63,553 nucleotides of DNA. It comes from Verrucomicrobiota bacterium. Its GTDB lineage: Bacteria; Verrucomicrobiota; Verrucomicrobiia; Limisphaerales; UBA8199. The DNA is taken from assembly GCA_039806935.1 (NCBI GenBank), contig JBDHQH010000006.1, positions 1 to 63,553 on the forward strand. Direction: 5' to 3'. Shown in pieces: positions 1-63,553 of the stretch. A model generated the notes under the pieces. It was given only the letters and a program-made list of their open reading frames with translations. It did not search any database and was not told where the DNA came from. The translations under genes and the position numbers were made by a program. Each line of letters starts with the position of its first letter. Position 1 is the first letter of the stretch.

Positions 1-89
1 CCCCTGCCCGTTTGCGGAGCGCGGGAGCTCCGCCCGCCGCCTTTGAAAAGACGTGCGCGGCACTCTGGTTCGATTATGCTAACCAACGA

Positions 90-875: not shown

Positions 876-903
876 GGCCCGGCGGGCTTAACTCCCAAGG
901 CGC

Positions 904-5076: not shown

Positions 5077-5137
5077 GCGACCAGCAGCCTTAAGGTTGAT
5101 AGGATGTTATGCCAGCCGACCACAAACGCAATTGGGA

Positions 5138-5503: not shown

Positions 5504-6263
5504 AGCCGTCGTGGAGAGCGTCCCTCGCCGTTGAACCGCGAGGGAGACCGGAGTTGGAGCCTCCCAATCTGCGGTTGGCCTGCTCGCGGTACTGCTCCCG
5601 GCGGGCCCGGAAATACCATCGAAACCACCGAGCCGAGTCGCGCACGGGACGTATTTTAGAGCGTTCGGCGGCATAAATCACGCGGATGGGGACGAATTCG
5701 ATGCGCAGTTTTGCCCGGGCAAAACGCCAGATCAGATCGGATTCCACCTCGAAATGATTGGCGGCAACCATCGCTTCCGCCCACCGCGGCAGTTCGATCA
5801 AACGAAAGCCGCATTGGGAGTCCGGTAACGGTTGCCCCGCCAGAGCGGAAATGCGCCGGCTCATCCACGAATTGATCATTCGCCGGAGCCGGGGCATGGC
5901 GTCCGGATTCCCAGTGCGGTTGCCGACGACCAAAGCAGCTCCAGTGCGATTCCGACACTCGAAAAATGCCGGGATGTCCTCGGGCGCGTGCTGACCGTCG
6001 CCATCCAGACATAAAGCCCATTGGAAACCCCGCTGGAAGGCCCACTCCCACCCGTGGCGCAGAGCCGAGCCTTTCCCAAGATTTGAGGGTCGCCGGAGCA
6101 CCTCGGCTCCGGCTGCACGCGCTCGCGCGGAGGTGGAGTCGGATGAACCATCATCCACGACGAGAACTTCGGGCGCGAATCTCCGGATTCGCCTCACGAG
6201 CACGGCGATCGAGTCTTCCTCGTTGAAGCACGGGATGATGGCGACAGCCAACGGATCAGCCAT
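5490..6263 (-). CDS. Glycosyltransferase family 2 (Dpm1-like)
   Basis: IIPCFNEE, VVDDGSSD, NLGKGSAL, LDGDGQH, DSQCGFRL. Confidence 0.9.
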   Translation of the reverse strand: MADPLAVAIIPCFNEEDSIAVLVRRIRRFAPEVLVVDDGSSDSTSARARAAGAEVLRRPSNLGKGSALRHGWEWAFQRGFQWALCLDGDGQHAPEDIPAFFECRNRTGAALVVGNRTGNPDAMPRLRRMINSWMSRRISALAGQPLPDSQCGFRLIELPRWAEAMVAANHFEVESDLIWRFARAKLRIEFVPIRVIYAAERSKIRPVRDSARWFRWYFRARREQYREQANRRLGGSNSGLPRGSTARDALHDGYATR

Positions 6264-6456
6264 ACGGATAAACGATTTTCGCTTTCACGCGGCGAATATA
6301 GGCGGATCGGCGATGGTGACAAGAGTGCGGGAACACTATTCTGCTCCCTGTGCGAGTGAACCGAACGTCGCCCTCCCACGGGCAAGGTATCCAACCATCT
6401 CCAGAGTAGGTCATTACCCACTTCCGCCGGCACTGGTTCAAGATTCAGGTTGTCGA

Positions 6457-6993
6457 ATGGGAAACACCGAAACGCAAACCAAAGAGCGCGGCCGAAGCTC
6501 CACCTCGGATATCCTCGGCATCGGCAAGCCTCCAAGCGTGCATCATCAATGGGCGGAGCAGCTCGAAAAACTGACGGACCTGCGCGACCGCCTGCTGCGT
6601 GAGCGTCATTATCAAACCGACACTGCCCGGGAGGAACTGGCCATCTTCGGCGAACACATAGCCGAAGCAGGGACGGACTCATTTGAAAAGGACTGTGCCC
6701 TGGCGCTGCTCTCCTCGACCCAGGACGCACTGTACGAGATCGATCTGGCGCTCACCCGGATTCACAACGGAACGTATGGAACCTGCGAATTGACGGGCGA
6801 GCGGATCGAAGCCGCCAGGCTTCAGGCGATCCCGTGGACACGATTTTCTCTTGCCGCCCAAGCCAGGTTGGAAGAACGAGGGGCGGGGCGGATCCGACTC
6901 GGCCAACTCGGAAGCTTGGAGCATGGCCAGCGTGGTGATTCAGGAGCGGAAGCCGGAGAAGAGGCCGAAGAAGGCCGGATGGCGACCGCCTGA
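6457..6993 (+). CDS. TraR/DksA family transcription factor
   Basis: Coiled coil then LYEIDLALTRIHNGTYGTCELTGERIEAARLQAIPWTRF; start moved to ATG 6457. Confidence 0.85.
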   Translation: MGNTETQTKERGRSSTSDILGIGKPPSVHHQWAEQLEKLTDLRDRLLRERHYQTDTAREELAIFGEHIAEAGTDSFEKDCALALLSSTQDALYEIDLALTRIHNGTYGTCELTGERIEAARLQAIPWTRFSLAAQARLEERGAGRIRLGQLGSLEHGQRGDSGAEAGEEAEEGRMATA

Positions 6994-7122
6994 TTCGACC
7001 CGTTCAGCCGGGCCGCCTGACGGCAGGATAGTCAGGGCAACCCATCGACAACGGACATTTGAAGTAGAACTCGGGCAGGCCCGCATCGCGCGCCTGCCCA
7101 GTGGAAGCGTTAGGCTGGGATT

Positions 7123-7563
7123 CTATTTTTCGCCAGACTGGGCGTTGCTGCCTGTGCTGGCGCCGCCGGCCCCTTGCTCCGCGCCACCCATCATCCGCTG
7201 CCCCCGCTGCCCTCGCGAGACCATTCGTTGGTAAGCTTCCCGCATCTGATCACGAATGAGGTTGTGCTGTTTGACCAAATTATTGATCACCGCCTCCATC
7301 GCATCCACCTTCGCGTTGCCTTGGGCTTGGTTCATTCGCTGCACATCCTGATCCAGCGCGGCGTCCATTTCCTCCAGTTGAGACATCGTTTTCTGATGCT
7401 CCCGCATCATCTGCTGACGCCATTCCATCCGGTTCGGGTTGCCTTTTTGTGTCGGGGTCGCCGAACCGCTGGAATCCGCTTGAGCCCAAAGAGAGGGTGC
7501 TGCGCTGACCGTGCTGGCAGCCGAGATAATTACCAACCATTTGCTGATATTTTTGATCTTCAT
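7123..7563 (-). CDS. Secreted Met/Gln-rich helical protein, hypothetical
   Basis: Signal peptide MKIKNISKWLVIISAASTVSAAPSLWA; coiled-coil-like Met-rich body. Confidence 0.7.
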   Translation of the reverse strand: MKIKNISKWLVIISAASTVSAAPSLWAQADSSGSATPTQKGNPNRMEWRQQMMREHQKTMSQLEEMDAALDQDVQRMNQAQGNAKVDAMEAVINNLVKQHNLIRDQMREAYQRMVSRGQRGQRMMGGAEQGAGGASTGSNAQSGEK

Positions 7564-7898: not shown

Positions 7899-9566
7899 AT
7901 GAAAATGACAGGCGCGGAACTTATCATCACCCTGCTCGAGCGGCAGGGCATCGAGATCATCACGGGCATGCCGGGCGGAGCGAACCTTCCGCTCTACGAC
8001 GCCCTGACGCGTAATCCGCGGATTCGGCATGTCCTGGCCCGGCACGAGCAAGCAGCGGGTTTCATCGCACAAGGGATGGCCCGGGTCACCGGGCGCCCGC
8101 AGGTCTGCTTTGCGACCTCCGGCCCAGGGGCGACCAACCTCCTGACGGCTGTGGCGGACGCCAAACTTGACAGCATCCCGCTGATTTGCATTACGGGCCA
8201 GGTGCCCACGGCCCTCATCGGCACCGACGCCTTTCAAGAAATTGACACGTACGGCCTGAGCATTCCGATCACCAAGCATAATTATTTGGTGCGCGACGTC
8301 CGGGATTTGCCTCGAATTATTCCTGAAGCTTTTCGCATCGCGTCGTCTGGCCGCCCAGGGCCGGTGCTGATCGACGTGCCAAAAGATGTCCAACTAGCGC
8401 CTATCGAAATGGCGGCTTTGCCGGAGCCCGGGCGGCCGGAAGCCTCTACGCCGCCTGATCCAGGCCAGATCGAGAAAGCCGCCGAAATGATCCGCGCCTC
8501 GCGCCGTCCGATTCTGTACATTGGCGGCGGCATCACCGCCAGCGGCGCGGCGGAGGATTTGCTGCGCTTGGCGGAACAGGCATCGATCCCCGTGGCGCCC
8601 ACCCTCATGGGACTGGATGCCCTGCCAACCGCGCACCCGCTGAATCTGGGCATGCTGGGCATGCACGGCGCCCAATTCACGAATCTGGCGCTCGACGCTT
8701 GCGATCTGCTGATCGCGGTGGGGGTCCGGTTCGACGATCGGGCCACGGGCAAAGTGGATGCCTTTTGCCCTCACGCGAGGATCATTCACATCGACATCGA
8801 CCCGAGCGAAATCGAAAAAATCAAACCCACGGCGGTGGGGATTGCGGCGGATGCCCGGGCTGCGCTCCGTCAACTGCTGCCTCTGGTCGGGAATGGCTCC
8901 CGACGGGAGTGGCTGGAAGAAATCGCCCGGCTTCGCTCAACCTTCCCGCTGGAATTTGAGAGCGAGAACGATCCCGGAACGGCCTACGGGCTCATCCGGC
9001 GCACGGCCGCCTGCCTGCCGCCGGAGACGATCATCACCACCGACGTGGGGCAGCATCAAATGAAAGCGGCACAGGCTTATCGCTTTCATTTCCCGCGCAC
9101 CTGGCTGACCTCGGGCGGCCTGGGCACCATGGGTTTTGGTTTCCCCGCCGCCATCGGCGCCGCCCTGGCCGCGCCCGAGCGCACCGTGGTCTGTTTCTCC
9201 GGCGATGGCAGTTTCCTCATGAACCTGCAGGAGTTGGCCACCCTGGCGGAGGAAAATCTCGAGGTGAAAATCGTCCTGCTCGATAACCGGTCGCTGGGTC
9301 TGGTGCATCAGATTCAGGATCTTTTTTATGGCGGCCGTTTTATCGGTGTGAATTATCCGAAACCAATTGATTTCGCGGGGATTGCCGAATGTTTCGGAAT
9401 CCCCTCCACCCGCCTGGGAACGGCGGGCGACCCCGTCCAGGCGCTCGAGGCGGCGCTCCGCAGCCGCGGACCTCATCTCATTCATGCGCCGGTGGACGTG
9501 TATGACAAGGTGTTTCCCATGGTGCAACCCGGCGCTTCAAACGCCCAAATGCTCACGCGCTCATGA
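7899..9566 (+). CDS. ilvB: Acetolactate synthase large subunit
   Basis: PGGANLPLYD, RHEQAAGF, TSGPGATN, GTDAFQE, TDVGQHQM, SGGLGTMGFG, ThDP motif GDGSFLMN...LDN. Confidence 0.95.
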   Translation: MKMTGAELIITLLERQGIEIITGMPGGANLPLYDALTRNPRIRHVLARHEQAAGFIAQGMARVTGRPQVCFATSGPGATNLLTAVADAKLDSIPLICITGQVPTALIGTDAFQEIDTYGLSIPITKHNYLVRDVRDLPRIIPEAFRIASSGRPGPVLIDVPKDVQLAPIEMAALPEPGRPEASTPPDPGQIEKAAEMIRASRRPILYIGGGITASGAAEDLLRLAEQASIPVAPTLMGLDALPTAHPLNLGMLGMHGAQFTNLALDACDLLIAVGVRFDDRATGKVDAFCPHARIIHIDIDPSEIEKIKPTAVGIAADARAALRQLLPLVGNGSRREWLEEIARLRSTFPLEFESENDPGTAYGLIRRTAACLPPETIITTDVGQHQMKAAQAYRFHFPRTWLTSGGLGTMGFGFPAAIGAALAAPERTVVCFSGDGSFLMNLQELATLAEENLEVKIVLLDNRSLGLVHQIQDLFYGGRFIGVNYPKPIDFAGIAECFGIPSTRLGTAGDPVQALEAALRSRGPHLIHAPVDVYDKVFPMVQPGASNAQMLTRS

Positions 9567-10303: not shown

Positions 10304-13367
<3,064 letters not shown>

Positions 13368-50503: not shown

Positions 50504-51916
50504 ATGCAAGCCAGCGCGCGCCGTCTGGGAACCCGGGTCAGAAACTGGCCCCCGTGGCTGATTGTCGCCCTCGGGCTGGGCTACGAGATCCCGCTGTGCG
50601 CGGCGGATCGCGCCCTGCCAGGGGAGCTGAGTTTGACGCTCTTTTATTTGCTGGGCCCGGTGTTTGCGGCCTGGGCGGGCGGCGCCCGGCCGGGCCTGGC
50701 GCTGGCCGGATTGACCGCGTTGCTGGCCTTTACCGCCGATCTGGCACACCTGGGCAACGACCCGGAATTACGCTCGGTTTTAATTTGGAATGGGCTTACG
50801 CGATTGATTTTATTTTGCGCCGCCGTGTGGAGCGTGGCGCGCGCGGCTCAATTTACCCGCACCCTGGGGAAATTAGTGGATGCAGGCACCGCCGAATTAA
50901 AGCGGGAAGTCGAACGGCACAAGCTCACTTGGGAGCGGATCAGCATCCGGGAGGCTTACCTGCGCGCTCTCTTCGACCGCGCGCCAGTGTTGCTCATTTC
51001 GACCAACCCATCCGGAGTAGTGGCCGTGGAGGAAGGTTCCGGTTTCCGGGCGCTGGGGGTCCAGCCGGGTCAGAATCTCGAACGGAGATTGGACGACGCC
51101 TATCACGCCTACCCGGAGCTCCTGGCCAACTTGAAACGCGCGCTGGCCGGCGAGGAGTTCACCGCCATTACCAGCATCGGCTCGCTGGCATTTGACTGCG
51201 CGTTTACCGCTCCTCGCTCGCCGGCGGGAACGCCCAACGGATGCGTCGCGGTGGGCACCAACATCACGGAGCGGCGGCGGCTGGAGCGGGAAATCGTCGA
51301 AATCAGCGACCGCGAGCAGGCGCGAATAGGCCAGGATCTGCATGATGGGCTTTGCCAGCGCCTGGTTAGCCTGGCCTTCGACGCCAGCACGCTGCGGGAA
51401 AACCTGCGCCAACGGGGCGCGCTCGACCCGCGGCGCCTCGCAAACATTGAGGTGAATCTGGATGCGGCGATCACGGAAGCCCGCCAACTCTCGCGGGGTC
51501 TTTTCCCAATTCGCCTGGAGTTCGAGGGCCTGGCGCCGGCCCTTGACGATCTGGCCCGCAACACGCGCACCCGGTTTGGAATCGAATGCGACTTTGACTG
51601 CTCCCACCCGCCAACCATCAAAAACGCCGCGATCGCCACGCACTTGTACCGGATCGCGCAGGAGGCGGTCACGAATGCCATCAAGCACGCTCGCCCGACT
51701 CAAATCACCATCGAACTCGCCGCAACCGCGGGTGCCCTCTGCCTCAGGATTGGCGATAACGGCTGCGGCGCCACACCCGACCCAGACGGTCGGGAGAGCG
51801 GCCTGGGCCTGCATATTATGAAGTACCGCGCGAACGCGATTGGCGCTTCGCTGGCGGTCGATCGCGGAGCTGAAAACGGCACCGTGGTGGCGTGCGTTCT
51901 GCCGCTTTCCTCGTGA
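50504..51916 (+). CDS. Membrane sensor histidine kinase (PAS plus HisKA_3/NarX-type)
   Basis: N-terminal TM helices, PAS-like region, RIGQDLHDGLCQ, YRIAQEAVTNAIKHA, DNGCG, GLGLHIM. Confidence 0.9.
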   Translation: MQASARRLGTRVRNWPPWLIVALGLGYEIPLCAADRALPGELSLTLFYLLGPVFAAWAGGARPGLALAGLTALLAFTADLAHLGNDPELRSVLIWNGLTRLILFCAAVWSVARAAQFTRTLGKLVDAGTAELKREVERHKLTWERISIREAYLRALFDRAPVLLISTNPSGVVAVEEGSGFRALGVQPGQNLERRLDDAYHAYPELLANLKRALAGEEFTAITSIGSLAFDCAFTAPRSPAGTPNGCVAVGTNITERRRLEREIVEISDREQARIGQDLHDGLCQRLVSLAFDASTLRENLRQRGALDPRRLANIEVNLDAAITEARQLSRGLFPIRLEFEGLAPALDDLARNTRTRFGIECDFDCSHPPTIKNAAIATHLYRIAQEAVTNAIKHARPTQITIELAATAGALCLRIGDNGCGATPDPDGRESGLGLHIMKYRANAIGASLAVDRGAENGTVVACVLPLSS

Positions 51917-51965
51917 CTTTGGGCATCGACTGCGGCATCCTCCTCGGCACGAATTGGACAGCATC

Positions 51966-53543
51966 ATGACTAGCCGCATCAAAACTTGCACCGCCACCCC
52001 GATCCGCGCGTCCTTGATTTTTCTTCTCGCGTTGGGATTCGCTCTGGGCGCCACCCCGATCCACGCTCACGCCGCTTCGCGCCACCTTTCGCGCGCCGAG
52101 TTGCTCGACAAAATCAAAGGTGGTTGGGCGGGTCAAATGATCGGCGTGGCTTACGGCGCCCCCACCGAATTCCGCTCCAACGGTCAGATCAATGAGGCTC
52201 CCTTGCCCTGGGCGCCGGACCGTGTCTCCAACGCGATCGAGCAGGATGATTTGTACGTGGAGATGACGTTTGCCAAAGTGATGGACGATCTGGGGATCAA
52301 GGCCACTTGCGAGGATTATGGCGAGGCTTTCAAGACCTCCCAATACCGTCTTTGGCACGCGAACGCGGCCGCGCGCCGGGCCTTGAATCAAGGCGTCAAA
52401 GCCCCTTGGACCGGACATCCAAAATATAACTTTCACGCCAATGACATTGATTTCCAAATCGAGGCGGATTTCATCGGGATCATGTGTCCGGGACTGCCGC
52501 GGCAGGCCAACAAATTTTGCGAGGAGGTCGGACGAGTAATGAACTATGGGGATGGCCTTTACGGCGGCATGTTCATCTGCGGGATGTACTCCGCCGCTTT
52601 TTTTGAGAGCAACCCGCGGAAAATCGTCGAGGCCGGTTTGGCTTGCATCCCGGCGCGAAGCGAATACGCGATGCTGCTTCATGATCTGCTGCAATGGTCC
52701 GCGCAGCATCCGGACGACTGGCGCAAGGTATGGCAAATGATCGAGACAAAATGGGACCGGGATGACGCCTGTCCGGACGGCGCCCTGATGCCCTTCAATA
52801 TCGATGCCAAGTTGAACGGGGCCTACGTCGCCTTCGGCCTGCTCTTTGGCGGCGGAGACTTTGGCAAAACGATGGAAATCTCGACTCGGTGCGGCCAGGA
52901 TTCGGATTGCAACCCTTCGAGCGCCGCCGGCGTGCTGGGCGTGGTCCTCGGATACGACCGCATACCCGATTTATACAAAAGCGGCATCCCCGCGCTGGCC
53001 AACACAAAGTTCGAGTTCACCGATTATTCCTTTAACACCATCGTTCAGTCCACCGAACGCCGCGCGCTGGAGGTCATCCAACTGGCCGGCGGCCGGGTGA
53101 CCGAGACCGAAGTCCGAATCCGCACCCAGAAGCCCAAGCCGGCCAAACTCGAGCAGTGGAGTCCCGGAATCCCTGATCGACGAATTCACGTTAATGAGCC
53201 TGCCTGGCGATGGGAAGGTGGTTGGCAGTTGGAGCGCGGGGCCAAATCGGCGAACACTCCCGGCCACGCCGCGGAATTTGACTTTGACGGAGTGGCAGTC
53301 GCGATTCTGGGCGATCTCGACCAGGCCGGCGGGCGAGCAGAGGTTTTCGTGGACGGCAAACGCGCGGGAACCGCGGACGCCTACATTGTCGAGAACACTC
53401 ACGATAATGTTCTCTGGCATATTTACGGACTCCGGCCCGGGAAGCATACCATCCGGCTGGTGACCCTGGACAGCGCCGATCCGCGATCAAAAGGCAAACG
53501 CGTTTCCTTGCGCCTGGCGGTTACTTACAAGCCGGGAAAATAA
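51966..53543 (+). CDS. Secreted ADP-ribosylglycohydrolase-family protein with C-terminal beta-sandwich domain
   Basis: Signal peptide; DKIKGGWAGQMIG..G.P.E, QDDLY, IDFQIEAD, GQDSDCN. Confidence 0.8.
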   Translation: MTSRIKTCTATPIRASLIFLLALGFALGATPIHAHAASRHLSRAELLDKIKGGWAGQMIGVAYGAPTEFRSNGQINEAPLPWAPDRVSNAIEQDDLYVEMTFAKVMDDLGIKATCEDYGEAFKTSQYRLWHANAAARRALNQGVKAPWTGHPKYNFHANDIDFQIEADFIGIMCPGLPRQANKFCEEVGRVMNYGDGLYGGMFICGMYSAAFFESNPRKIVEAGLACIPARSEYAMLLHDLLQWSAQHPDDWRKVWQMIETKWDRDDACPDGALMPFNIDAKLNGAYVAFGLLFGGGDFGKTMEISTRCGQDSDCNPSSAAGVLGVVLGYDRIPDLYKSGIPALANTKFEFTDYSFNTIVQSTERRALEVIQLAGGRVTETEVRIRTQKPKPAKLEQWSPGIPDRRIHVNEPAWRWEGGWQLERGAKSANTPGHAAEFDFDGVAVAILGDLDQAGGRAEVFVDGKRAGTADAYIVENTHDNVLWHIYGLRPGKHTIRLVTLDSADPRSKGKRVSLRLAVTYKPGK

Positions 53544-53653
53544 CCAGGTGCGGCTCGGTCTGGCGCGAGCGAACGTGGATCTCTCGCGTGAAAAGGCCCG
53601 GCTGGCAGCATTAAGCTTTGCCATGCGCAAGTCGGATAATCTATCTTAAACTT

Positions 53654-54895
53654 ATGAGTTCTAAATTAGCATTACTGGGAGGGGAAAAGACCCGCACGCG
53701 TCCGTTCTCCACCTGGCCGATCTTCGGTTCTGAGGAGGAGAAACGTCTCCTGTCCGCCTTGCGCAGCGGCAAATGGGGAAAACTGCACGGCCCCGAGGTC
53801 GCCGAATTCGAGCGTCGGTTCGCCGCCATGCATGGCGCCCGGCATGGCATTGGCGTCGTCAACGGCACGGTCTCCCTGCGCCTGGCCCTCATGGCGGCGG
53901 GCATCGAGGCCGAAGCCGAGGTGATCGTCCCGCCCTATACCTTTCTGGCCACCGCCACCGCGGTCGTCGAGGCCAACGCCATCCCGGTCTTCGCGGATAT
54001 CGAATTGGACACCTTCAACCTCGACCCCCGGGCGGTCGAGGCAGCCATCACACCGCGCACCCGGGCGATTATTCCCGTCCACATCGCTGGCCAGCCGGCC
54101 AACATGGACGCCCTCCTGGAGATCGCCCGGCGTCATCAACTGATTGTGATCGAGGACGCCGCCCATGCGCACGCTGCGCAATATCAGGGCCGGCCGGTGG
54201 GTTCGCTCGGGCATCTTGGCTCCTTTTCCTTTCAATCCAGCAAGAATCTCACCTCCGGCGAGGGTGGGATCATCACCACCTCGGACGATGCGCTGGCCGA
54301 GGCCTGCCAGTCCGTCCACAACTGCGGTCGCCGCTCGGGCGGGTTATGGTACGAGCACTACGTCATTTCCGGCAACTACCGTCTGGGCGAGTTCCAGGGG
54401 GCGGTGCTCAACGCGCAGTTGGACCGGTTGGAGGCGCAGACCATGGCGCGCGACCGCAACGGCTCGGCCCTGGCGAAGCGCTTGAGCGCGATTCCGGGCG
54501 TTTACCCGCAGCGACGCACCGCCGAGTGCTCGCGCCACAGCTATCATTTGTTCCTCCTGCGTCTCGACGCGGCGCGGTTTGGCGCGCCCCGCGAGGCCGT
54601 GCTGCGGGCGCTCCACGCGGAAGGCATCCCCATTTGCGCCGGTTACGCCGTGCCGCTCTACCGGCAGCCGCTGTTTCTCAATAAAGCCTTTGGTCCATAT
54701 CTCCATCACGCCTCCGCGGCGCTGGATTACGGAAAAGTCCAATGCCCGAACTGCGAGAAAATCTGCGCCGAACAAGGCGCCTGGATGGAGCAAAGCTTGT
54801 TTTTGGGGCCGCCCGAGGACATGGAGGACATCGCCCGGGCGTTCGAAAAGGTGTACGAAGGGCGCGCCGCGCTGGGCGCGGTGGTTGCAGGGTAA
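53654..54895 (+). CDS. DegT/DnrJ/EryC1/StrS family PLP aminotransferase
   Basis: NGTVSL, VPPYTFLATA, IIPVH, IEDAAHAH, SFSFQSSKNLTSGEGG, GNYRL. Confidence 0.92.
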   Translation: MSSKLALLGGEKTRTRPFSTWPIFGSEEEKRLLSALRSGKWGKLHGPEVAEFERRFAAMHGARHGIGVVNGTVSLRLALMAAGIEAEAEVIVPPYTFLATATAVVEANAIPVFADIELDTFNLDPRAVEAAITPRTRAIIPVHIAGQPANMDALLEIARRHQLIVIEDAAHAHAAQYQGRPVGSLGHLGSFSFQSSKNLTSGEGGIITTSDDALAEACQSVHNCGRRSGGLWYEHYVISGNYRLGEFQGAVLNAQLDRLEAQTMARDRNGSALAKRLSAIPGVYPQRRTAECSRHSYHLFLLRLDAARFGAPREAVLRALHAEGIPICAGYAVPLYRQPLFLNKAFGPYLHHASAALDYGKVQCPNCEKICAEQGAWMEQSLFLGPPEDMEDIARAFEKVYEGRAALGAVVAG

Positions 54896-54922
54896 CACCC
54901 CGCCCCCGGTCATCCGCCCGTC

Positions 54923-54947
54923 AACTGGCGAAGGCAATTTACCAGTT
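54923..54947. promoter_or_regulatory. Putative operator, copy 1 (AACTGG-N13-CCAGTT) upstream of nanA
   Basis: AACTGGCGAAGGCAATTTACCAGTT; followed by TTGCCC-17 nt-TAGCGT (54956-54984). Confidence 0.7.
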
Positions 54948-54995
54948 CGGTTGGATTGCCCGCCCCCCGAGGGAGTCGTAGCGTGCTTCACGACG

Positions 54996-55970
54996 ATGAA
55001 ACCAAACGATTTTGGCGGCAACGGTGAAAATGGCATTCGAGGACTGGTCGCCGCTCCCTTCACGGCTTTTCAGCCAAATGGGGAGTTGAACCTCGATTTG
55101 ATCAAGCCTCAAGCCCGCTGGCTCGCGAGCAACCGCGTCAGCGGGGCATTCATCTGCGGCACCACCGGTGAGGGATTCTCACTCTCTACGGAGGAGCGCA
55201 TGCGGGTGGCCGAGCGGTGGGTGGAGGCGGCCCCCGCGGATTTGAGCGTGATCGTGCATGTGGCGCACAACAGCCTGGCCGAAAGCCAGAGGCTGGCGGC
55301 GCATGCGCAGGAACTCGGAGCCAGGGCGATCGCTTGCGTCGGCCCAACTTTTTTTAAACCGTCCAGCGTGGCGGAGTTAGTTGATTTCTGCGCCCCGGTG
55401 GCCGCCGCGGCCGCCACCCTGCCCTTCTATTACTATCACATGCCGGCCATGACGGGGGTTCAGGTGCCGATGCTCGATTTTTTGCGGGCCGGCGCCAGAC
55501 GCATTCCGAACCTGGCCGGCATCAAATTCACCGACGAAAACTTGATGAGCTATGCCCAGTGCCTGAATTTTGAGGATGGCCGGTTCAATCTTCTTTTCGG
55601 CCGCGACGAAATCCTTCTGGCGGCGTTAGCCTTGGGGGCGAAGGGCGCCGTGGGCAGCACGTACAATTACATGGCGGCCATTTATCATCGGTTGATCGAC
55701 GCTTTCCAGGCCGGAGATCTTTCCAACGCGCGCCGCTGGCAGATGCTGGCCATCCAAATCATCGCGATCATGGCGCGCCACGGGGGGTTGCCCGCGGGCA
55801 AGGCCATGATGAAAATCATCGGCCTGGACTGTGGCCCGGTTCGCCCTCCGTTAAGAATACTAACGACCGCGGAATTTGACAGTCTGCGACAAGATCTTGA
55901 CCGGGGAGGATTTCCCAACCAAGTGCCCGCCAGTCCCCGACCGGTGGGCGAAGCCAGCGTGGCAGGTTGA
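54996..55970 (+). CDS. nanA: N-acetylneuraminate lyase (DHDPS family)
   Basis: GTTGEG, VIVHV, FYYYHMP, GIKFT (Schiff-base Lys), FGRDE, GAVGSTYN; sialidase context; start moved to ATG 54996. Confidence 0.85.
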   Translation: MKPNDFGGNGENGIRGLVAAPFTAFQPNGELNLDLIKPQARWLASNRVSGAFICGTTGEGFSLSTEERMRVAERWVEAAPADLSVIVHVAHNSLAESQRLAAHAQELGARAIACVGPTFFKPSSVAELVDFCAPVAAAAATLPFYYYHMPAMTGVQVPMLDFLRAGARRIPNLAGIKFTDENLMSYAQCLNFEDGRFNLLFGRDEILLAALALGAKGAVGSTYNYMAAIYHRLIDAFQAGDLSNARRWQMLAIQIIAIMARHGGLPAGKAMMKIIGLDCGPVRPPLRILTTAEFDSLRQDLDRGGFPNQVPASPRPVGEASVAG

Positions 55971-57067
55971 TGAAAATCGGACCGCCAGGGAATTTTGCCC
56001 GCCCGGCTTTCCCCCGAAGCCTCGCCGCGAGACTCAGCCTTTTCTTTCTGATGAGCATGTTGACGGCATTGACGGCAGATCAACTTCAATTCTCCAAACT
56101 GGCCAGCCTTCCGGATCCGGAAGGCTTCGCCGGCGCTTTCGCCGGCGTGGCGAAAGACCGCCTGATCGTCGCCGGGGGAGCCAATTTCCCGGAAAAGAAG
56201 CCTTGGGAGGGTGGCGCCAAGGTGTGGCACGATGGCGTCTTCAGCCTCGACGACCCCCAGGCGCAATGGAAGCGGATAGGCAAGTTGCCTCGTGCCCTAG
56301 GCTATGGCATCGCCGTGACCACCCGTGAGGGTATCGTGTGTGTGGGCGGCAGTGATGCCGAGCGGCATCACCGAGAAGTCTTCCTGCTCGAAATGCGCGA
56401 CGGACAGCTTGAATTTAAGGATTTGCCCGCTCTGCCGATCCCCGTGGCAAATGGCGCCGGTGCTTTGCTTGAGGGGACCATTCTGGTTTTTGGCGGGTCG
56501 GATCAGCCTGGAGAGACATCGGCGCTGAATCGGTTATTTGCCTATGATTTGAAAGCCGCCGCTTCTGAATGGCGAGAACTGGAAGCCTGCCCGGGGCCGG
56601 GAAGGTTTCTTCCCGCAGCGGCCGTGGTGAACGGAGTTTTTTACGTCATGGGAGGAGCGGGTCTCGAGGCAAAGAACGGGCAAGCCATTCGCGCCTATCT
56701 GCATGATGCCTGGAGTTACCGTCCCGGCGAGGGCTGGCGGCGCTGCGCCGATCTGCCCAGGCCGGTCGTGGCGGCGCCCAGTCCCGCGCCGGTAAACAAC
56801 GGCCAGATCTACCTCATCGGAGGGGATGATGGGGCGCGGAAAGATTTCCAGCCGGTGTCCCGGCATCCCGGTTTCGCCAAATCAATCCTCCAGTACAACG
56901 CGAAGGCGGATGCCTGGTCCAGCGCGGGTGAGACACCGGCCCCGCGGGCGGTCCTGCCGGCAGTGCTCTGGCGCGGACGCTGGATCATGCCCAACGGAGA
57001 AGCCAGGCCCGGCGTCCGCTCGCCCGAGGTGTGGTCGTTCTCGCCGGCGGGCCGCCCCGCATCTTGA
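55967..57067 (+). CDS. nanM: Kelch-repeat protein, probable N-acetylneuraminate mutarotase
   Basis: GFAGAFAG...IVAGGANFP, repeated GG kelch blades, C-terminal GEARPGVRSP; start uncertain. Confidence 0.75.
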   Translation: MMKIGPPGNFARPAFPRSLAARLSLFFLMSMLTALTADQLQFSKLASLPDPEGFAGAFAGVAKDRLIVAGGANFPEKKPWEGGAKVWHDGVFSLDDPQAQWKRIGKLPRALGYGIAVTTREGIVCVGGSDAERHHREVFLLEMRDGQLEFKDLPALPIPVANGAGALLEGTILVFGGSDQPGETSALNRLFAYDLKAAASEWRELEACPGPGRFLPAAAVVNGVFYVMGGAGLEAKNGQAIRAYLHDAWSYRPGEGWRRCADLPRPVVAAPSPAPVNNGQIYLIGGDDGARKDFQPVSRHPGFAKSILQYNAKADAWSSAGETPAPRAVLPAVLWRGRWIMPNGEARPGVRSPEVWSFSPAGRPAS

Positions 57068-57079
57068 AAAGCTCGGTTT

Positions 57080-58258
57080 ATGTCGTTCGTGAAAACCCCT
57101 CCCCTCTATCACCCGGCGCGAACCGGGCTAATCGCGGTCTGGTGCCTGCTCGCCGCCGCGGCCGATGCGGCAACCCCTGCTCCGCCCCCGTCCCAGACGT
57201 TGTTCGCGCGAGGACAGGAGGGCTATCACACCTGCCGGATCCCCGCTCTGGCGGTCACTACCAACGGCACTGTGCTGGCCTTCGCAGAGGGGCGAAAACA
57301 CTCCGGGGGCGACGCCGGGAAAATTGACCTTCTGGTGAGGCGCTCCGTTGATAACGGGGAGACCTGGGGCAAAGTTCAAGTGGTTTGGGCAGATGAAGAA
57401 AACACCTGCGGCAATCCTGCCCCGGTGGTGGACCGGCAAACCGGCGCCGTATGGCTCCTCAGCACCTGGAACCGCGGCGAGGATCACGAAAGAAAAATCA
57501 TTGACCGAACCAGCCGGGATACGCGCCGTATCTTTGTTGCCAGCTCGAGCGACGACGGAATTACCTGGACCCAGCCGCGCGAGATTACCCCCGAGGTGAA
57601 ACTTGCCAACTGGACATGGTACGCCACCGGCCCGGGCGGCGGCATCCAAATGACGCGCGGTCCGCGTTCGGGCCGCCTGGTGATCCCCTGCGACCACATC
57701 GAGGCGGACACTAAACATTACTATTCGCACGTCATTTATTCAGACGATCACGGTCAAAACTGGAAGCTCGGCGGTTCCACCCCCCGCAGTCAGGTAAATG
57801 AGTGCGAGATTGTGGAATTAGCCGGGGGCCGACTCATGCTGAACATGCGAAACTACGATCGAACCCATCACCGACGCCAGGTAGCCATTAGCGACGATGG
57901 CGGATTGACCTGGGCGGATCAGCGCTTTGACGAGGCGCTCATTGAGCCCATCTGTCAGGCGGCGATCCGGCGATGGCGCTGGCCCGCTCAGGATCAAACC
58001 GGGGTGATTGCCTTCAGTAACCCCGCCAGCCAACATGCGCGTACCAACCTGACGCTGCGGGCCAGCTTTGACGACGGGCGCACGTGGCCGGCGGCTCGAG
58101 TATTGCATCCGGGCCCCAGCGCTTACTCAGATCTGGCGGTTCTGGCTGACGGCAGGATTGCGTGTTTGTTTGAGGCCGGCGCGACAAATTCGTACGAGAC
58201 AATTCGTCTGGTTCGTCTGCCTCTCGAAGCTCTGGCCCCCGATCACGCTTCGCGATAG
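57080..58258 (+). CDS. Exo-alpha-sialidase (GH33), secreted
   Basis: CRIP (FRIP-like), five Asp boxes ([40 protein letters not shown]), GPGGG, NEC, NMR, SAYS. Confidence 0.92.
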
Positions 58259-58263
58259 GCCGT

Positions 58264-59553
58264 ATGCAGCCTCACGCCTCCAACGCCAACCGCGAGCCAC
58301 CACTCCCGGCGTTCGAGGCGGGCACTCATCGGGGGGGTAGCTGGCAACCCTGGCTTGTCGTCGCTTTGCTTTGGCCGGTAGCCTGCTTGAATTATCTCGA
58401 CCGACTGATGATCACCACAATGCGTGATTCCATCAAAGCCGGCATTGAGATGACGGACGCACAATTTGGGCTGCTTACCTCGGCGTTTCTATGGGTGTAT
58501 GCGTTTCTGAGTCCGTTTGGCGGCTACCTGGCGGATCGTTTCAGCCGGACTCGGGTGATCATCGGCAGTCTTTTTGTCTGGTCGGCCGTCACCTGGCTGA
58601 CCGGGCACGCCAGCAACTTTCATCAGCTCCTGCTCGCCCGCTCGCTCATGGGCGTCAGCGAGGCTTGCTATATTCCGGCGGCGCTAGCCTTGATCGCGGA
58701 TTACCACCGGGGGCCCACTCGCTCGCTGGCCACGGGTCTGCACATGAGCGGCCTTTACGCCGGCGCCGCTCTCGGTGGCTTGGGCGGTGTCGTAGCCGAG
58801 CATCTGCGATGGCAAAGCGCCTTCTACGCCTTTGGCGCCATCGGCATCGCTTACAGTGCGATGTTGTTCTTGGCCCTGCGCGACGCACCCCAGCCCAAGC
58901 CGGAAATCTCCGGCTCCCGGCAAGCGGGAGGAGTGACGCTGCGTTCCGCGCTCGATTTCTTGCGTCGGCAAGAATCGTTTTGGGCGCTGGGCGCATTTTT
59001 TGGTTTCATGTCGATCGCGAATTGGGCGATCTACGGCTGGCTGCCCACCTACCTGGGACAGCAGTTCAAACTGGGCCAGGGCGCCGCCGGCATGTCGGCC
59101 ACCGCCTACATCCAGATCGCGTCCTTTGCCGGCGTACTGGTCGGAGGCGCCTGGGCGGACCGCTGGGCGCGGAAGCAGCCGCGCGGCCGGATTTTCGTGC
59201 CGGTGATCGGGTTTTGCGCCGCCGGTCCCGCCTTGTTCATGTCGGCCTCCACCGGGGCTCTCGTGGTGGCCATTGCCGGCCTGCTGATTTTCGGGTTGGC
59301 CCGGGGTTTCGCGGACGCCAATAACATGCCGATTTTGTGCCAAATCACACCCGGACGCTATCGCGCCACCGGCTACGGAGTGCTGAACTTCGTGGCCTGC
59401 GTTTTGGGGGGACTGATGACCTACGCTGGTGGCGCGCTGCTGGATGCGCGCGTGGGACTGGAAAAGGTATTTCAGTTTTGCGCCGCCGGCCTGGTTCTGG
59501 GCGGGCTGCTGCTGCTTCTGGTCAAGCCCCGGCCCGACCTGGAGCAAAGTTAA
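58264..59553 (+). CDS. MFS transporter, probable sialic acid transporter (NanT-like)
   Basis: LNYLDR, GGYLADRFSR, multiple TM helices, GGAWADRW; last gene of nan operon. Confidence 0.85.
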   Translation: MQPHASNANREPPLPAFEAGTHRGGSWQPWLVVALLWPVACLNYLDRLMITTMRDSIKAGIEMTDAQFGLLTSAFLWVYAFLSPFGGYLADRFSRTRVIIGSLFVWSAVTWLTGHASNFHQLLLARSLMGVSEACYIPAALALIADYHRGPTRSLATGLHMSGLYAGAALGGLGGVVAEHLRWQSAFYAFGAIGIAYSAMLFLALRDAPQPKPEISGSRQAGGVTLRSALDFLRRQESFWALGAFFGFMSIANWAIYGWLPTYLGQQFKLGQGAAGMSATAYIQIASFAGVLVGGAWADRWARKQPRGRIFVPVIGFCAAGPALFMSASTGALVVAIAGLLIFGLARGFADANNMPILCQITPGRYRATGYGVLNFVACVLGGLMTYAGGALLDARVGLEKVFQFCAAGLVLGGLLLLLVKPRPDLEQS

Positions 59554-59570
59554 ATTATTTCCCCGGCGCC

Positions 59571-60647
59571 TCAGCCAAAGGTTCGGCCCGGAATAAACCG
59601 CGGCATTAACAAACGCTGACGGACCGGCGGGTTTCCGCCAGAGGTAAGCTCCATCACGACCCGTGACAGCTTTTGGGCGAACGCCTCCGGATCCACCAGG
59701 TAACGGGCCACCGAGGGCACCACGTCCGCCAGAAACGAATCGTGATCGCGGGATATCAGGGCGGCGGTTTTGGGAAAGTGAAATCCACGTTGGACCAGGT
59801 AGCCCAAGGCCGTCAGCGCATGGCGGGCTTGGGCGACCAGAAACGCCGTCGGCCGCCGCTTTTCCCGGGCCAGCAACCGAGCGAGGGTCCCGCAGATCCC
59901 CTCCACGGTTCCATCGTGGTGAACCACCAACGTCTCCATTCCCACTCCGGCTCGGGCGCCACCCAGATGGAATCCTTCCTCGCCTTTAAGATCGCCAGCC
60001 GCAGCGACCCGCGGCGTGAGCAACGCCACACAGCGATGTCCCTTGGCGGCAAATTGACCGACCGCGTGCTGGCAGGCGGCGGCATGATCGCGATCCACCG
60101 AGGGTAGCCGGACGCCCTCATACGGCGAGCCCGCCAGAACCGCCGGCAGACGCCGGGCCACAAACCACTCCTGCATCGCGCGAGTCGAGAGCACCAGCAC
60201 CCAGGCTGCCGGTTGAACCTGGGCGACCAATTCCTCCAGCCGACGTTGCGGGCGCGCCAGATACAAACCCGGGCGGCAGAGAACTTCGAGTTGATGCTGC
60301 TCCTTGGCCAACGCCTGCCGGAGTTCGTCGATCCAGAATAGCAACCGGGGTTCAACCGCGGTCAGGGCCACCGGCAACACCAAACCCACCGCGCGCAGAG
60401 TCGGGCTGGCGCCCCCGCGTTCGACCCGCTCGCCGACTACGCGACCGCTGCATGGCCGGTTGCGCAATAAACCCTCCGCTTCCAGCAACGCCAGCGCGGA
60501 GCTGAGGGTGGGCCGGCTGATCCCCAATTGCCGCGCCAACTCCCGTTCTCCCGCCACTTTGTGGCCAGCCGGACGCGTGGAAAAATGGCGGCGCAGGATT
60601 TCGGCGGTTTGGGCGACGAGCGTCACCCGCCTCGGCAGATCAATCAT
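59571..60647 (-). CDS. Transcriptional regulator: GntR-type wHTH plus LacI-type ligand-binding domain
   Basis: GERELARQLGISRPTLSSALALLEAEG; LPSVDRDH, KGHR, PTAFL, ALISRD; start ATG 60647 (called ORF extends antisense to the prepilin gene). Confidence 0.85.
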   Translation of the reverse strand: MIDLPRRVTLVAQTAEILRRHFSTRPAGHKVAGERELARQLGISRPTLSSALALLEAEGLLRNRPCSGRVVGERVERGGASPTLRAVGLVLPVALTAVEPRLLFWIDELRQALAKEQHQLEVLCRPGLYLARPQRRLEELVAQVQPAAWVLVLSTRAMQEWFVARRLPAVLAGSPYEGVRLPSVDRDHAAACQHAVGQFAAKGHRCVALLTPRVAAAGDLKGEEGFHLGGARAGVGMETLVVHHDGTVEGICGTLARLLAREKRRPTAFLVAQARHALTALGYLVQRGFHFPKTAALISRDHDSFLADVVPSVARYLVDPEAFAQKLSRVVMELTSGGNPPVRQRLLMPRFIPGRTFG

Positions 60648-60688
60648 TGGCCGCAGCCTGCCCCGGAACGGCGCTCGGCGCAAGCAAT

Positions 60689-60713
60689 AACTGGCTATCT
60701 GTTTTGGCCAGTA
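60689..60713. promoter_or_regulatory. Putative operator, copy 2 (AACTGG-N13-CCAGTA) between regulator and prepilin gene
   Basis: AACTGGCTATCTGTTTTGGCCAGTA; followed by TCGCAA-16 nt-TAAATT (60722-60749). Confidence 0.7.
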
Positions 60714-60755
60714 TAAAACCGTCGCAACCGCGGGCTGCTCCGCTAAATTAGCCGC

Positions 60756-61598
60756 GTGAGCAACACGCTGTTTGGTTCCGTCAAAGCCGTCCCGCGGGAT
60801 CCCGGGCAGCCGAGGCGTTCCCCCGACCGAAACTTTTTTCCCCGCCACCGCCGGCCCGGATTTACCCTGATTGAGTTGCTCGTGGTGATCGCCATCATCG
60901 CGATTCTGGCCGCCATGCTCCTCCCCGCCCTGAGCAAGGCGAAAACCAAAGCCAGCGGAATCTCCTGCCTGAACAACCTGCGGCAAATGCAATTGGGGTG
61001 CGCGCTCTACGCGGACGACAATGCCGATCGCTGGGTCCCGAGCCTGGCCATCGCGGATCCGCGGCTGACCTGGGCCGCGGGGGATCTGCGCAACGCGATG
61101 GACGCGACGAATCTCCTCTTCACGACGGGCGCGCTGCTCGGCCAATACGTCAAATCCGCGGACGTTTTCCGCTGCCCGGCCGACACGGCGCGGGTCAACG
61201 GCCGGCCCCGAGTGCGGAGCCAATCCATGAACATTTTCTTCGGCGGCCGGGGCGACGGCGCCCCCGCCTCGTCGCGCGTGAACACCGCCACCCATTACTT
61301 TTTCAGCAAGACCGCCTCCGTCCTGCGGCCGGCCGGGCTTTGGGTGCTGTGGGATGAGAACCCGGCCACGATCGACGATTGTTACGGGGTGGTGGACGTC
61401 AGCCCGGCATACAAGGCCAGCCGAGTTCTGGTGAACACGCCAGCCAGCTACCACAATCGCGCTGGCGGCTTGTCGTTTGCCGACGGCCATGCGGAAATCA
61501 AACGCTGGGTTGGCCCCGGCGTATTTGAGGGGAGCTATAACGCCGATGGCGGCAAAGACTACGACTGGCTGGCCGAAAGGACGACCTATGAGAAATAA
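60756..61598 (+). CDS. Prepilin-type N-terminal cleavage/methylation protein with H-X9-DG domain (DUF1559-like)
   Basis: G|[52 protein letters not shown]. Confidence 0.92.
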
Positions 61599-61926
61599 GC
61601 GGGCACTGCTGTGCGCGGCCCTGATAGCCGCCGGGTTGGCCGTTGGATGCGGCAAAAAGAAGACCGGCGCCCTCTCGCCGGAGTTGGAACTCCAACCGAC
61701 GGCGTCGGCAGACGCGCTCAACCAACCGGTCGCAGTCCAGGAAGCCCCGTATCAGACGCGGGATCTGCAACTTTCCGTGGATGCTTACCAGAAAATCTAC
61801 CATCGCCAGCCCGCCAGCCTGGAGCAAATGGTTCAGGAAGGCTTTCTCGCCTCCTTGCCGCCGGCGCCTCCGGGCAAGCGCTTCGTCCTGGATTCCGCCA
61901 CTGGGCGGGTCCGGCTTGAGCCTTGA
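61588..61926 (+). CDS. Small lipoprotein with pseudopilin G-like C-terminal fold
   Basis: Lipobox LAVG-C; [40 protein letters not shown]; overlaps prepilin stop. Confidence 0.7.
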
Positions 61927-61977
61927 CATTTCCGAGACCAATTCTGCACGGCACCAACAAACGAAACCCCCAAGCCT

Positions 61978-63553
61978 ATGAAAAACCAAACCATCAAAGC
62001 TCGCTCCGCTCAGCGCCGGCGGTTTCTTCCGGCCGCGCTGCTCACTTTCGCCATAGCCGCCCAACCAGGCGAGGCGGCCACCTACTACTTTGACAACGAC
62101 TCGGCGTCCCCCGGCTTTGGAACCGCCGGCGGCACCTGGGCAGCGCCCACATCGGGGCCAATACCGGGCTGGAGCACCGATTCCACTGGCGCTTCCACGC
62201 CCGGCTCGGTGACCACGACGCTCTCCGATTGGTTAAATTTCGGTTCCGAGGCAGCCGGTCTGGGCGCGGGCACGATCACCCTGGAGGGCGCGTTGAGCGC
62301 CAGCAATATGACTTTCGCCGCCGGCTCCGGCCACATCACTCTGACCGGAGGATCACTTGCCCTGCCGGCAACCGCGGTGATCAGCGTGAACAATAGCGCG
62401 GATACCATCGCTTCGCCGCTGGCCGGGGCGGCAACCTCCCTCGCCAAGGAGGGTCCGGGAACGCTTCTCCTGTCCGGCCCCAATGCGGTAGCCGGAGCGG
62501 TGGCCATCAACCGCGGCGAACTGCAACTCAACTCGGGATCGTTGAATCTCGGCAATAACGCCGTGAGCATCGCCTCCGGCTCCGGCCGCACGGCGGTCCT
62601 CCATATTCTTAACGGCAACTTTACGAATGCGGCCACCAGCACGGTGGGATCTGGAACGGACAACGCCGTTGGCATAATCAAAATCAACGGCGGCAACTTT
62701 GTCAAAACCGCCGGCAATCTGAACTTAAGCGGAGGCGCCGCGGGGCGGGCGAATTACAGCGCCTTGCTCATGTCCGAAGGTTATGCCGCGGTTGCCGGCG
62801 AATTCAACATGACGTATAACTCCCTCGACGCGGCCAGTTACATTCAGTTAACGGGGGGGCTTTTGGTCACGAGCAATTACTGCACGGTGGGCCGTGAGGG
62901 ATCAGGGACCCTCGATATCGCCGGAGGGACTTTTTTCCGCCCCGCGACAGCCGCCAACAAGTTCTACATGAACCGCTCCGCCGGCAGCTTTTCGCAACTG
63001 GCAATTCGGAACGGAGGCGTCCTGGACATCGAGGACAGTTTTGGCCTGGCGTTCGCCAATAGCGCAAACAACGCCGGATCGGGGGTCGTGAATCTGTTGT
63101 CGGGAGGCCTGCTGATTAGCCGCGCGGGGGTGATTTGGAACGGGAAAGGCATTACCTACGGCTATTTTAATTTTAATGGCGGCGTTCTGCGGGCCAGCGG
63201 GGGGTCAGCCCGGTTTTGGACGAATAGCTGGACGGCCTGCTATGTGTTCGCTGGCGGAGCGACGATTGACTCGCAAGCCAATGATCTCACCATTGATCAG
63301 CCTCTTCTCGCACCATCCGGGAACGGGGTGACTTCCATCGCAGGAGGGGCAGGCGAAGGCTATCTGGCGCCACCCGTGGTTCAACTCCTGGGAGGTGGCG
63401 GCACGGGCGCCTCCGCGATCGCCCAACTCGATCCAATCGGCGTCATCACCAACATTCTGGTCACCAACCCCGGTGTGGATTACACCAGCGCGCCCACCGT
63501 TGCGTTGCTCGGCGGCGGCGGCGTCGCCCACGGCTGGACCGCCGTCATCGGGC
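61978..63553 (+). CDS. Large secreted autotransporter-associated beta-strand repeat protein (partial, runs off the window)
   Basis: Not in ORF track because no stop; hand-translated MKNQTIKARSAQRRRFLPAALLTFAIAAQPGEA..., repeat LAKEGPGTLLLSGPNAVAGAVAINRGELQL, FNFNGGVLRA...GGATIDS; Gly/Ala/Thr/Asn-rich. Confidence 0.88.
   Translation, partial: MKNQTIKARSAQRRRFLPAALLTFAIAAQPGEAATYYFDNDSASPGFGTAGGTWAAPTSGPIPGWSTDSTGASTPGSVTTTLSDWLNFGSEAAGLGAGTITLEGALSASNMTFAAGSGHITLTGGSLALPATAVISVNNSADTIASPLAGAATSLAKEGPGTLLLSGPNAVAGAVAINRGELQLNSGSLNLGNNAVSIASGSGRTAVLHILNGNFTNAATSTVGSGTDNAVGIIKINGGNFVKTAGNLNLSGGAAGRANYSALLMSEGYAAVAGEFNMTYNSLDAASYIQLTGGLLVTSNYCTVGREGSGTLDIAGGTFFRPATAANKFYMNRSAGSFSQLAIRNGGVLDIEDSFGLAFANSANNAGSGVVNLLSGGLLISRAGVIWNGKGITYGYFNFNGGVLRASGGSARFWTNSWTACYVFAGGATIDSQANDLTIDQPLLAPSGNGVTSIAGGAGEGYLAPPVVQLLGGGGTGASAIAQLDPIGVITNILVTNPGVDYTSAPTVALLGGGGVAHGWTAVIG

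Follow-up and report, generated by a model that had tools for sequence, protein, structure and literature searches.

A shared palindrome and a GntR/LacI-type regulator predicted to join sialic-acid genes to a prepilin-led cassette in a Verrucomicrobiota bacterium

The window analysed here is a 63,553-nt stretch of DNA from a Verrucomicrobiota bacterium, comprising the whole of contig JBDHQH010000006.1 (assembly GCA_039806935.1; contig C50 of the 3.88-Mb, 63% G+C genome that we label G000). It carries two copies of a palindrome, ACTGG-N13-CCAGT, one ahead of a sialic-acid (nan) operon and one between the gene for a regulator, with a GntR-type helix-turn-helix and a LacI-type sugar-binding domain, and a divergent cassette led by a prepilin-like gene. 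We place a probability of about 0.78 on the reading that both palindromes serve as operators for the regulator whose single-copy gene lies between them; this protein would co-control the nan genes and the cassette. A regulator dimer would sit on each 23-bp site (half-site about ACTGG-Y-M-A-A, with an AT-rich centre), and the regulon in this genome would comprise the nanA–nanM–sialidase–major facilitator superfamily (MFS) transporter operon, the regulator's own gene and the divergent cassette. One sugar-sensing protein would then switch liberation of sialic acid at the surface, uptake and cleavage together, with sialic acid or a breakdown product as the inducing signal; the likeliest mode at the nanA and prepilin promoters would be activation, from a site that ends 9 bp before a weak TTGnnn hexamer. 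A first-pass annotation, made from the sequence of the window, had proposed that the regulator binds both sites, and in comparisons between genomes the palindrome does behave as the operator of a GntR/LacI-type protein.

Both 25-mers named in that annotation, AACTGGCGAAGGCAATTTACCAGTT at 54923–54947 and AACTGGCTATCTGTTTTGGCCAGTA at 60689–60713, are present and hold ACTGG-N13-CCAGT (the 23-bp palindromes within them are listed in Table 1). Operator 1 lies 28 bp past the stop codon of a DegT-type aminotransferase gene and 49 bp ahead of the nanA ATG, and operator 2 lies midway along the 108 bp that separate the divergent regulator and prepilin-like genes. The motif occurs twice in the window against a mean of 0.01 in 100 dinucleotide-preserving shuffles, none of which held two or more. 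Two further exact matches exist elsewhere in G000. Unlike these, the window pair has an AT-rich centre and a half-site that extends to ACTGG-Y-M-A-W; together with position, these features are what distinguishes the two sites. A weight matrix built from seven sites in other genomes and metagenome contigs, run over the whole of G000, gave operator 2 the highest score (25.7 bits) and operator 1 the second highest (20.8 bits), followed by a match at 19.0 bits. We dropped a coding-versus-intergenic test on the other genome-wide matches: in a 63% GC genome even the true sites fall inside stop-to-stop frames of 150 codons or more, and the test cannot discriminate.

To place the palindrome in a family context, we collected regulator homologues from related genomes (G labels) and from loci fetched from genomes or metagenome contigs (L labels). 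The regulator family was present in 18 of 61 related genomes. A family-wide search of 45 genomes returned eight close homologues besides the window's own, none of them new, and a scan of a contig collection returned one locus, identical to that of G035. Mapping the window proteins onto 12 fetched loci identified three nan-linked orthologues, L031 (G035, 77% identity), L032 (G010, 67%) and L033 (G024, 58%). A metagenome scan contributed 18 further loci, including the near-identical L045, L046, L048 and L059 and the likewise nan-linked L047, L049, L050 and L057, with an L049 spacer identical to that of L033. L063 (G065) and L064 (G007) were recruited independently of the regulator, through the prepilin gene, for which a separate protein search found orthologues in 7 of 45 genomes including G000.

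The pairing of palindrome and protein points to this regulator. Homologues at 28–45% identity that lie beside unrelated genes have palindromes of the same build 40–65 bp before their own start codons, including TGGTCA-N7-TGACCA in L013 and L025, CTGGCC..GGCCAG in L018 and GCTTGT..ACAAGC in L030, and the only gene common to these unrelated contexts is the regulator. The predicted recognition helix tracks the operator: clade A proteins carry GISRPTLSAAL and go with ACTGG or TCTGG, clade B proteins carry GVSRMTLRAAL and go with ACTTGTAT or GGTCYA, and a third regulator clade that is not linked to nan genes has no such site. The regulator also adjoins the site in eight of nine distinct nan loci. 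These three observations argue against the very unlikely alternative that another protein binds the palindrome, for example a NarL/LuxR-type response regulator of a nearby two-component system, and that the GntR/LacI-type regulator is a mere neighbour. Such a protein is suggested by a HisKA_3 sensor kinase gene at 50504–51916 of the window, by the kinase and apparent LuxR-type response-regulator genes immediately 5′ of the regulator gene in G010, and by the site retained in G007 despite a truncated adjacent regulator gene (described below), but the flanks fetched for L031 and L033 gave no kinase match.

Across the family, the regulator homologues of L013, L025, L018, L030, L028, L029, L014, L023 and L024 each have their own palindrome of about 19–25 bp with an AT-rich centre, in which the half-sites vary around nCT(G/T)GTC, TGGTCA and GCTTGT; a specificity code for the regulator family might be worked out from these palindromes. 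In L039 (G024:C4, 8865–8887) an exact ACTGG-N13-CCAGT (ACTGGTCTTTTCTTTGAACCAGT) lies about 199 bp before the start of a 45%-identity paralogue, whereas the diverged variant accompanies the nan-linked regulator of G024.

Phylogenetic footprinting, which the first-pass annotation had named as a check, found sites at orthologous positions in other genomes. The exact palindrome recurs in the spacer between regulator and prepilin genes in G035, and one-mismatch or matrix-detected sites lie just 5′ of nanA in G010, L045 and L047, as well as 5′ of the regulator gene in L045. In clade B, the nanA/regulator spacers of L033, L050, L057, L063 and L064 share a variant, ACT(G/T)GTATTTT-N3-T(G/A)GACCA(A/G), within spacers that have otherwise diverged. 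All nine distinct nanA upstream regions therefore carry the palindrome or its clade-specific variant. The window query found no nanA in G035, a genome that is 89% complete and whose nan contig ends past nanM. At L061 (3390–3560) and L062 (6960–7135), both from metagenome contigs, a distant regulator homologue (34% identity, the same two domains) is divergent from a nanA homologue (56%), and the matrix gave no ACTGG-type site at either locus.

Cassette and operator are connected in three independent ways. G000 and G035 have the site in the spacer from which the regulator and prepilin-like genes diverge. In G010, where the cassette is about 20 kb away from the regulator (11.6 kb past the nanA site), the prepilin gene nevertheless has its own site, ACTGGTAAAAACAGTTGGCCAGC, within an 88-bp gap, with its centre about 58 bp ahead of the gene start; this site is not attributable to autoregulation. 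In clade B, nanA, the prepilin gene, two PATR-repeat genes and a sialidase gene run in tandem on one strand behind a single site. The proposal that a shared site ties the nan genes to the prepilin-led cassette is thus supported by conserved placement in relatives, and joint control with sialic-acid catabolism would be coherent because the cassette carries a sialidase of its own.

Several findings weigh against this interpretation. In G000 the bare ten-base core has 4 matches with an N13 spacer and 1–5 with every other spacer from 5 to 24, and in three related genomes the core with one mismatch occurs 218, 192 and 370 times against 227, 179 and 423 for a reversed control, which is background. 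Because it is not enriched genome-wide, the core alone is weak evidence; the genome-wide scan suggested by the first-pass annotation consequently splits, with the bare core at background and the extended matrix placing both window sites at the top. That matrix test is itself partly independent, because its seven training sites were found with a window-derived motif. The loci are kin by descent and represent few lineages (two regulator clades, about nine distinct loci). Membership of the cassette in the regulon is not universal: the 21 kb fetched for the L045 clade contain no orthologue of the prepilin cassette, and the strongest site of that clade (L045 8050–8072, 27.5 bits) instead lies 48 bp ahead of a MazG-like gene (113 aa) that is followed by a DUF4861 gene. 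Two loci have damaged regulator genes. In L064 (G007:C11, about 11390–11490; an 83% complete metagenome-assembled genome) the operator and promoter are intact and only about the first 25 codons of the regulator are left, through either recent loss or an assembly artefact, and L038, the other regulator homologue of G007, falls in clade C, which is not linked to nan genes. In L063 (G065:C40, 7687–8753; a 66% complete metagenome-assembled genome) two overlapping tblastn matches cover regulator residues 1–62 and 28–357 with a stop in one translation, probably reflecting a frameshift or sequencing error.

Regulon content varies between clades, and the L045 site at 8050–8072 lies just past an esterase and SMP-30/gluconolactonase gene, divergent from the regulator.

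With the ten-base core at background, the palindromes could be chance matches, or hairpins in RNA that act as terminator or attenuator, but we regard this as extremely unlikely. One of five tested sites does fold better than its shuffles (60681–60721, plus strand, z = −2.98), and site 1 lies just past the stop codon of the preceding gene. The other four sites show no folding advantage over shuffles (z between −1.39 and +0.24), the stem predicted in L033 and in L044 is not formed by the palindrome, no T-run follows the sites, and the clade B variant is conserved although its arms are non-complementary. An RNA hairpin or terminator was rejected on the folding z-scores, and chance is opposed by the top two ranks under an external matrix and by conservation at orthologous positions in diverged spacers.

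How the regulator would act on these promoters is less clear than where it would bind. The geometry noted in the first-pass annotation is present: CCAGT is followed after 9 bp by TTGCCC-17-TAGCGT at nanA and by TCGCAA-16-TAAATT at the prepilin gene. Across relatives, the 9-bp gap followed by TTGnnn, 17–18 nt and nAnnnT was found at seven of seven nanA and two of three prepilin promoters (G035, TTGCCC-17-CAAATT; G010, TTGCTG-17-GATAGT), and by eye at nanA in L063 and L064 too; the same phasing appeared on none of six gene-distal sides and at 0.0014 of random genome positions. The intervening bases show no conservation, which suggests selection on the phasing itself. If the hexamers are −35 and −10 elements, the operator would span about −67 to −45 relative to the predicted start, with its centre near −56. 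An activator fits this arrangement because the site lies upstream of the polymerase core contacts and the hexamers are weak, and on these grounds we lean slightly towards activation at the nanA and prepilin promoters. CcpA reportedly activates ackA from a site at −56.5, a parallel that we did not use as evidence.

Three points count against the activator part. The −35 hexamer of the G000 prepilin promoter is TCGCAA and lacks the TTG, a consensus promoter scan of 54700–62100 gave 0 hits against 1.1 expected (a scan that is uninformative on weak promoters), and sugar regulators of the GntR and LacI types are mostly repressors. The same regulator and operators could thus form a sugar-released repressor. 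Bound upstream of −35, it would hinder polymerase, for instance by keeping the alpha C-terminal domain off the AT-rich region; or else the true promoters overlap the palindrome. Release would be by sialic acid or N-acetylmannosamine (ManNAc). We consider this a realistic prospect, at odds clearly below even. Regulators with a GntR-type winged helix or a LacI-type domain are mostly repressors, AraR among them in the available part of its description (PMC4494728); the lack of a detected consensus promoter may mean that the assumed hexamers are not real promoters; and at the clade B regulator gene a −10-like TAGnnT begins 14 bp past the site, which puts the −35 position inside an operator arm, a geometry expected of a repressor. 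Repression at the target genes is opposed by a site wholly upstream of a phased −35/−10-like pair at 9 of 9 nanA and 2 of 3 prepilin promoters, and by −35/−10 hexamers as weak as those expected of activator-dependent promoters; a repression loop is unlikely because each target promoter has one site and the two G000 sites are 5.8 kb apart. On the regulator-gene side, 6 bp separate the site from the predicted −35 in clade A, with TTGACC after the same gap in G035 and L045, and together with the clade B arrangement this geometry suggests autoregulation, possibly negative in clade B.

A sigma-54 reading of 'GG...TTGC' was rejected by eye, as the GG–GC spacing does not fit. At each of the three prepilin genes, only 6–8 nt lie between the end of the predicted −10 hexamer and the start codon, and the transcripts may therefore lack a leader. 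No Shine–Dalgarno sequence was recognisable at the nine gene starts examined (50504–62000), genes internal to operons included; we dropped this as evidence for leaderless mRNAs, since the operon-internal genes equally lack one.

By domain architecture, the predicted regulator fits the AraR subfamily of the GntR family, which is defined by a GntR-type winged helix-turn-helix and a GalR/LacI-type C-terminal domain (available part of PMC4494728). Pfam assigns GntR (PF00392) to residues 27–70 (31.7 bits, cut-off 27) and Peripla_BP_3 to residues 196–356 (61.3 bits). Against the PDB, the N-terminus matches the PdhR N-domain (5kvr, E = 7.5e-7), and in profile searches the C-terminus matches LacI-family 3bbl and CcpA structures (E = 3e-11 to 8e-9). 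The AraR N-terminal domain (4egy) matches at E = 0.0023 (20 bits), behind PdhR, YvoA, FadR and E. coli NanR. For the C-terminal domain, the best 60 of 98 PDB matches include no arabinose-repressor chain; it is possible that the protein is a fusion formed independently of AraR. The first-pass annotation had called it unlike NanR proteins of the FadR and RpiR types, and the Pfam domains agree. No FCD domain (the FadR C-terminal domain) is found among its Pfam matches, no HTH_6 or SIS domain of the RpiR type among its Pfam or NCBIfam matches, and no LacI-type helix-turn-helix (PF00356) among its Pfam matches, which for the N-terminus are the winged-helix models GntR, MarR_2, Crp-like, IclR and HTH_24. 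Judged by these domains, it is neither a FadR-type nor an RpiR-type NanR, nor a member of the LacI family proper. A single tblastn match in G000 indicates that the gene is single-copy.

Table 1 Features of the window around the two palindromes (positions are those of the window; operators and promoters are predicted)
Feature	Position	Strand	Description
Operator 1 (predicted)	54924..54946		23-bp palindrome ACTGGCGAAGGCAATTTACCAGT; rank 2 genome-wide by matrix from other genomes
nanA promoter (predicted)	54956..54984	+	TTGCCC (54956–54961), 17-nt spacer, TAGCGT (54979–54984)
nanA-like lyase	54996..55970	+	Pfam DHDPS 175 bits; best NCBIfam match N-acetylneuraminate lyase
NanM-type sialic-acid mutarotase	55967..57067	+	Kelch propeller; Pfam NANM PF24996 147 bits (cut-off 45)
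BNR-repeat sialidase	57080..58258	+	Pfam BNR_2 128 bits
MFS transporter	58264..59553	+	Anion:cation symporter-like; Pfam MFS_1 184 bits
Regulator	59571..60647	−	358 aa; N-terminal GntR-type winged helix-turn-helix, C-terminal LacI/GalR-type sugar-binding domain
Regulator promoter (predicted)	60655..60683	−	TTGCGC (60683–60678), 17 nt, CAGGCT (60660–60655); weak hexamers
Operator 2 (predicted)	60690..60712		ACTGGCTATCTGTTTTGGCCAGT; rank 1 genome-wide by matrix from other genomes
Prepilin-gene promoter (predicted)	60722..60749	+	TCGCAA (60722–60727), 16 nt, TAAATT (60744–60749); ends 6 nt before GTG
Prepilin-like protein	60756..61598	+	N-terminal cleavage/methylation motif; Pfam N_methyl PF07963 38 bits; TIGR02532; GTG start
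Small conserved lipoprotein	61588..61926	+	Lipobox LAVGC; 11-nt overlap with prepilin stop; conserved C-terminal stretch
Giant PATR-repeat protein, 5′ part	61978..63553	+	Pfam PATR, TIGR02601; contig ends inside gene

The identities that the first-pass annotation gave to genes around both sites agree with Pfam and NCBIfam, with one correction, that nanA starts at the ATG at 54996. In the nan locus, genes for a mutarotase, a sialidase and a transporter cluster with that for a DHDPS-family lyase, and neither nanK nor nanE is present there. The lyase scores below the cut-offs of the NanA equivalog models (149 against 281 bits for NF003164, and 132 against 382 for another), and its substrate could be N-acetylneuraminic acid or a related nonulosonic or keto-deoxy acid. 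For the transporter, the best NCBIfam match is the D-galactonate transporter subfamily, below its cut-off. The region 5′ of the nan operon (50504–54895), which begins with the HisKA_3 sensor kinase gene, also encodes a protein with an ADP-ribosylglycohydrolase domain and a CE2-type esterase N-domain, and for the DegT-type aminotransferase encoded before nanA the best NCBIfam match is PseC/LegC, of nonulosonic-acid pathways, below cut-off; these genes may relate to modified sialic-acid-like sugars. A listing of sequencing runs for the window DNA covered 14 runs from 6 studies, with no RNA run among them. Positions 54500–62000 are nearly complete (88–99% of sampled words) in eight sludge or activated-sludge metagenome runs from three studies, six of which are flagged as possible sources of the assembly.

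The cassette runs from the prepilin-like protein through a small lipoprotein and a PATR protein of about 1,500 aa to a sialidase–PATR fusion of at least 1,023 aa. Orthologues of the prepilin-like protein, at 70–77% identity, occur in 6 of 44 other genomes of the family; its C-terminus holds an H-X9-DG-type motif seen by eye in the translation, and no H-X9-DG model matched at E ≤ 0.001. G000 has about 55 prepilin-type N-terminal motifs. Regulator paralogues are not regularly found beside a prepilin gene, as the prepilin motif occurs at two of nine paralogue loci (L039 and L041). The small lipoprotein lies between the prepilin and PATR genes in all eight cassette loci examined by tblastn, and its L031 counterpart matches no Pfam family. 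The window ends within the PATR gene, whose L031 counterpart encodes a 1,511-aa PATR-repeat protein, followed by a BNR_2 and PATR fusion of at least 1,023 aa that runs off the end of the locus. Contig C164 of G000 matches the L031 PATR protein at 2–2989 (65%) and the sialidase–PATR fusion at 3037–6051 (61%); its order over 2–7430 is PATR residues 517–1511 of the L031 orthologue, the sialidase–PATR fusion and a further sialidase-like stretch, and to judge from this order C50 and C164 are probably adjacent. The first-pass annotation had called the cassette an autotransporter cassette. This name is a misnomer, because no autotransporter beta-barrel was detected by Pfam (E ≤ 0.01) in the complete L031 PATR protein or in the sialidase fusion, the C-terminus of which lies beyond the locus end, and these orthologues show only PATR repeats and BNR domains.

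Where prepilin-like families reach dozens of copies per genome, a cis-element that couples one paralogue to a sugar pathway and a PATR-anchored sialidase offers a testable handle on the role of these proteins, and it is mainly through this handle on the expanded pseudopilin and PATR families of Planctomycetota–Verrucomicrobiota–Chlamydiota (PVC) bacteria that the element is of interest. For a phylum in which promoter data are nearly absent, the conserved module of site, 9 bp and TTG would in addition offer a first working model of activator-type promoters. A bolder reading, which we think unlikely, makes the cassette a substrate-dedicated surface module, the Verrucomicrobiota counterpart of the Sus-like machinery of Bacteroidota, with a pseudopilus-type fibre that exports or displays the PATR-anchored enzyme; each pseudopilin paralogue would belong to its own glycan-specific module with its own sugar-sensing regulator, and the switch would be an undescribed chimera of GntR-type winged helix and LacI domain, independent of AraR and activating from near −56.

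In well-studied bacteria, regulators of the FadR, RpiR and other types are known to govern sialic-acid regulons. The literature searched, which left most subscription journals uncovered, yielded no regulator with a GntR-type winged helix and LacI-type domain for sialic acid, nor its operator in Verrucomicrobiota; what appears new here is a variant sugar-responsive transcription factor and operator for sialic acid, within an already known type. Like AraR of B. subtilis, the predicted regulator has a chimeric build, palindromic operators, apparent autoregulation and a sugar regulon with transporters and glycosidases. It differs in phylum (Verrucomicrobiota rather than Firmicutes), in sugar (sialic acid rather than arabinose) and in its longer, 23-bp operator, and whereas AraR is a repressor, the window sites lie upstream of −35 and not over the promoter, so that activation is possible. 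With E. coli NanR it shares a GntR-type winged helix (a weak match, 6on4, E = 3.7e-4) and nanA-led sialic-acid catabolism as the target, but the effector domain is of the LacI type here and the helical FadR C-terminal domain there, and the sites are inverted repeats here and direct repeats of TGGTATAW there (available part of PMC4494728). The RpiR-type NanR/SiaR proteins of Streptococcus pneumoniae and Clostridium perfringens likewise regulate nan and sialidase genes, through a different fold (HTH_6 and SIS) of which the window regulator has neither part. According to the available part of one report, the pneumococcal protein is an activator that senses ManNAc-6-phosphate (10.64898/2025.12.10.693482), which gives nan-gene activation a precedent.

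For the cassette, the closest parallel comes from Verruconatronum alginivorum, a cultured member of the Verrucomicrobiota. One of the 67 pulG-like pseudopilin homologues in its genome is encoded within a cluster induced by alginate, and proteomics shows over-expression of a pseudopilin on this substrate (available part of PMC13274419). Substrate-specific induction of pseudopilin paralogues thus has a precedent, and G000 resembles this genome in having about 55 prepilin-type motifs with one inside a predicted sialic-acid regulon. The available part of that report names no regulator or operator for the pseudopilin, whereas in G000 both a cis-element and a candidate regulator can be proposed from sequence.

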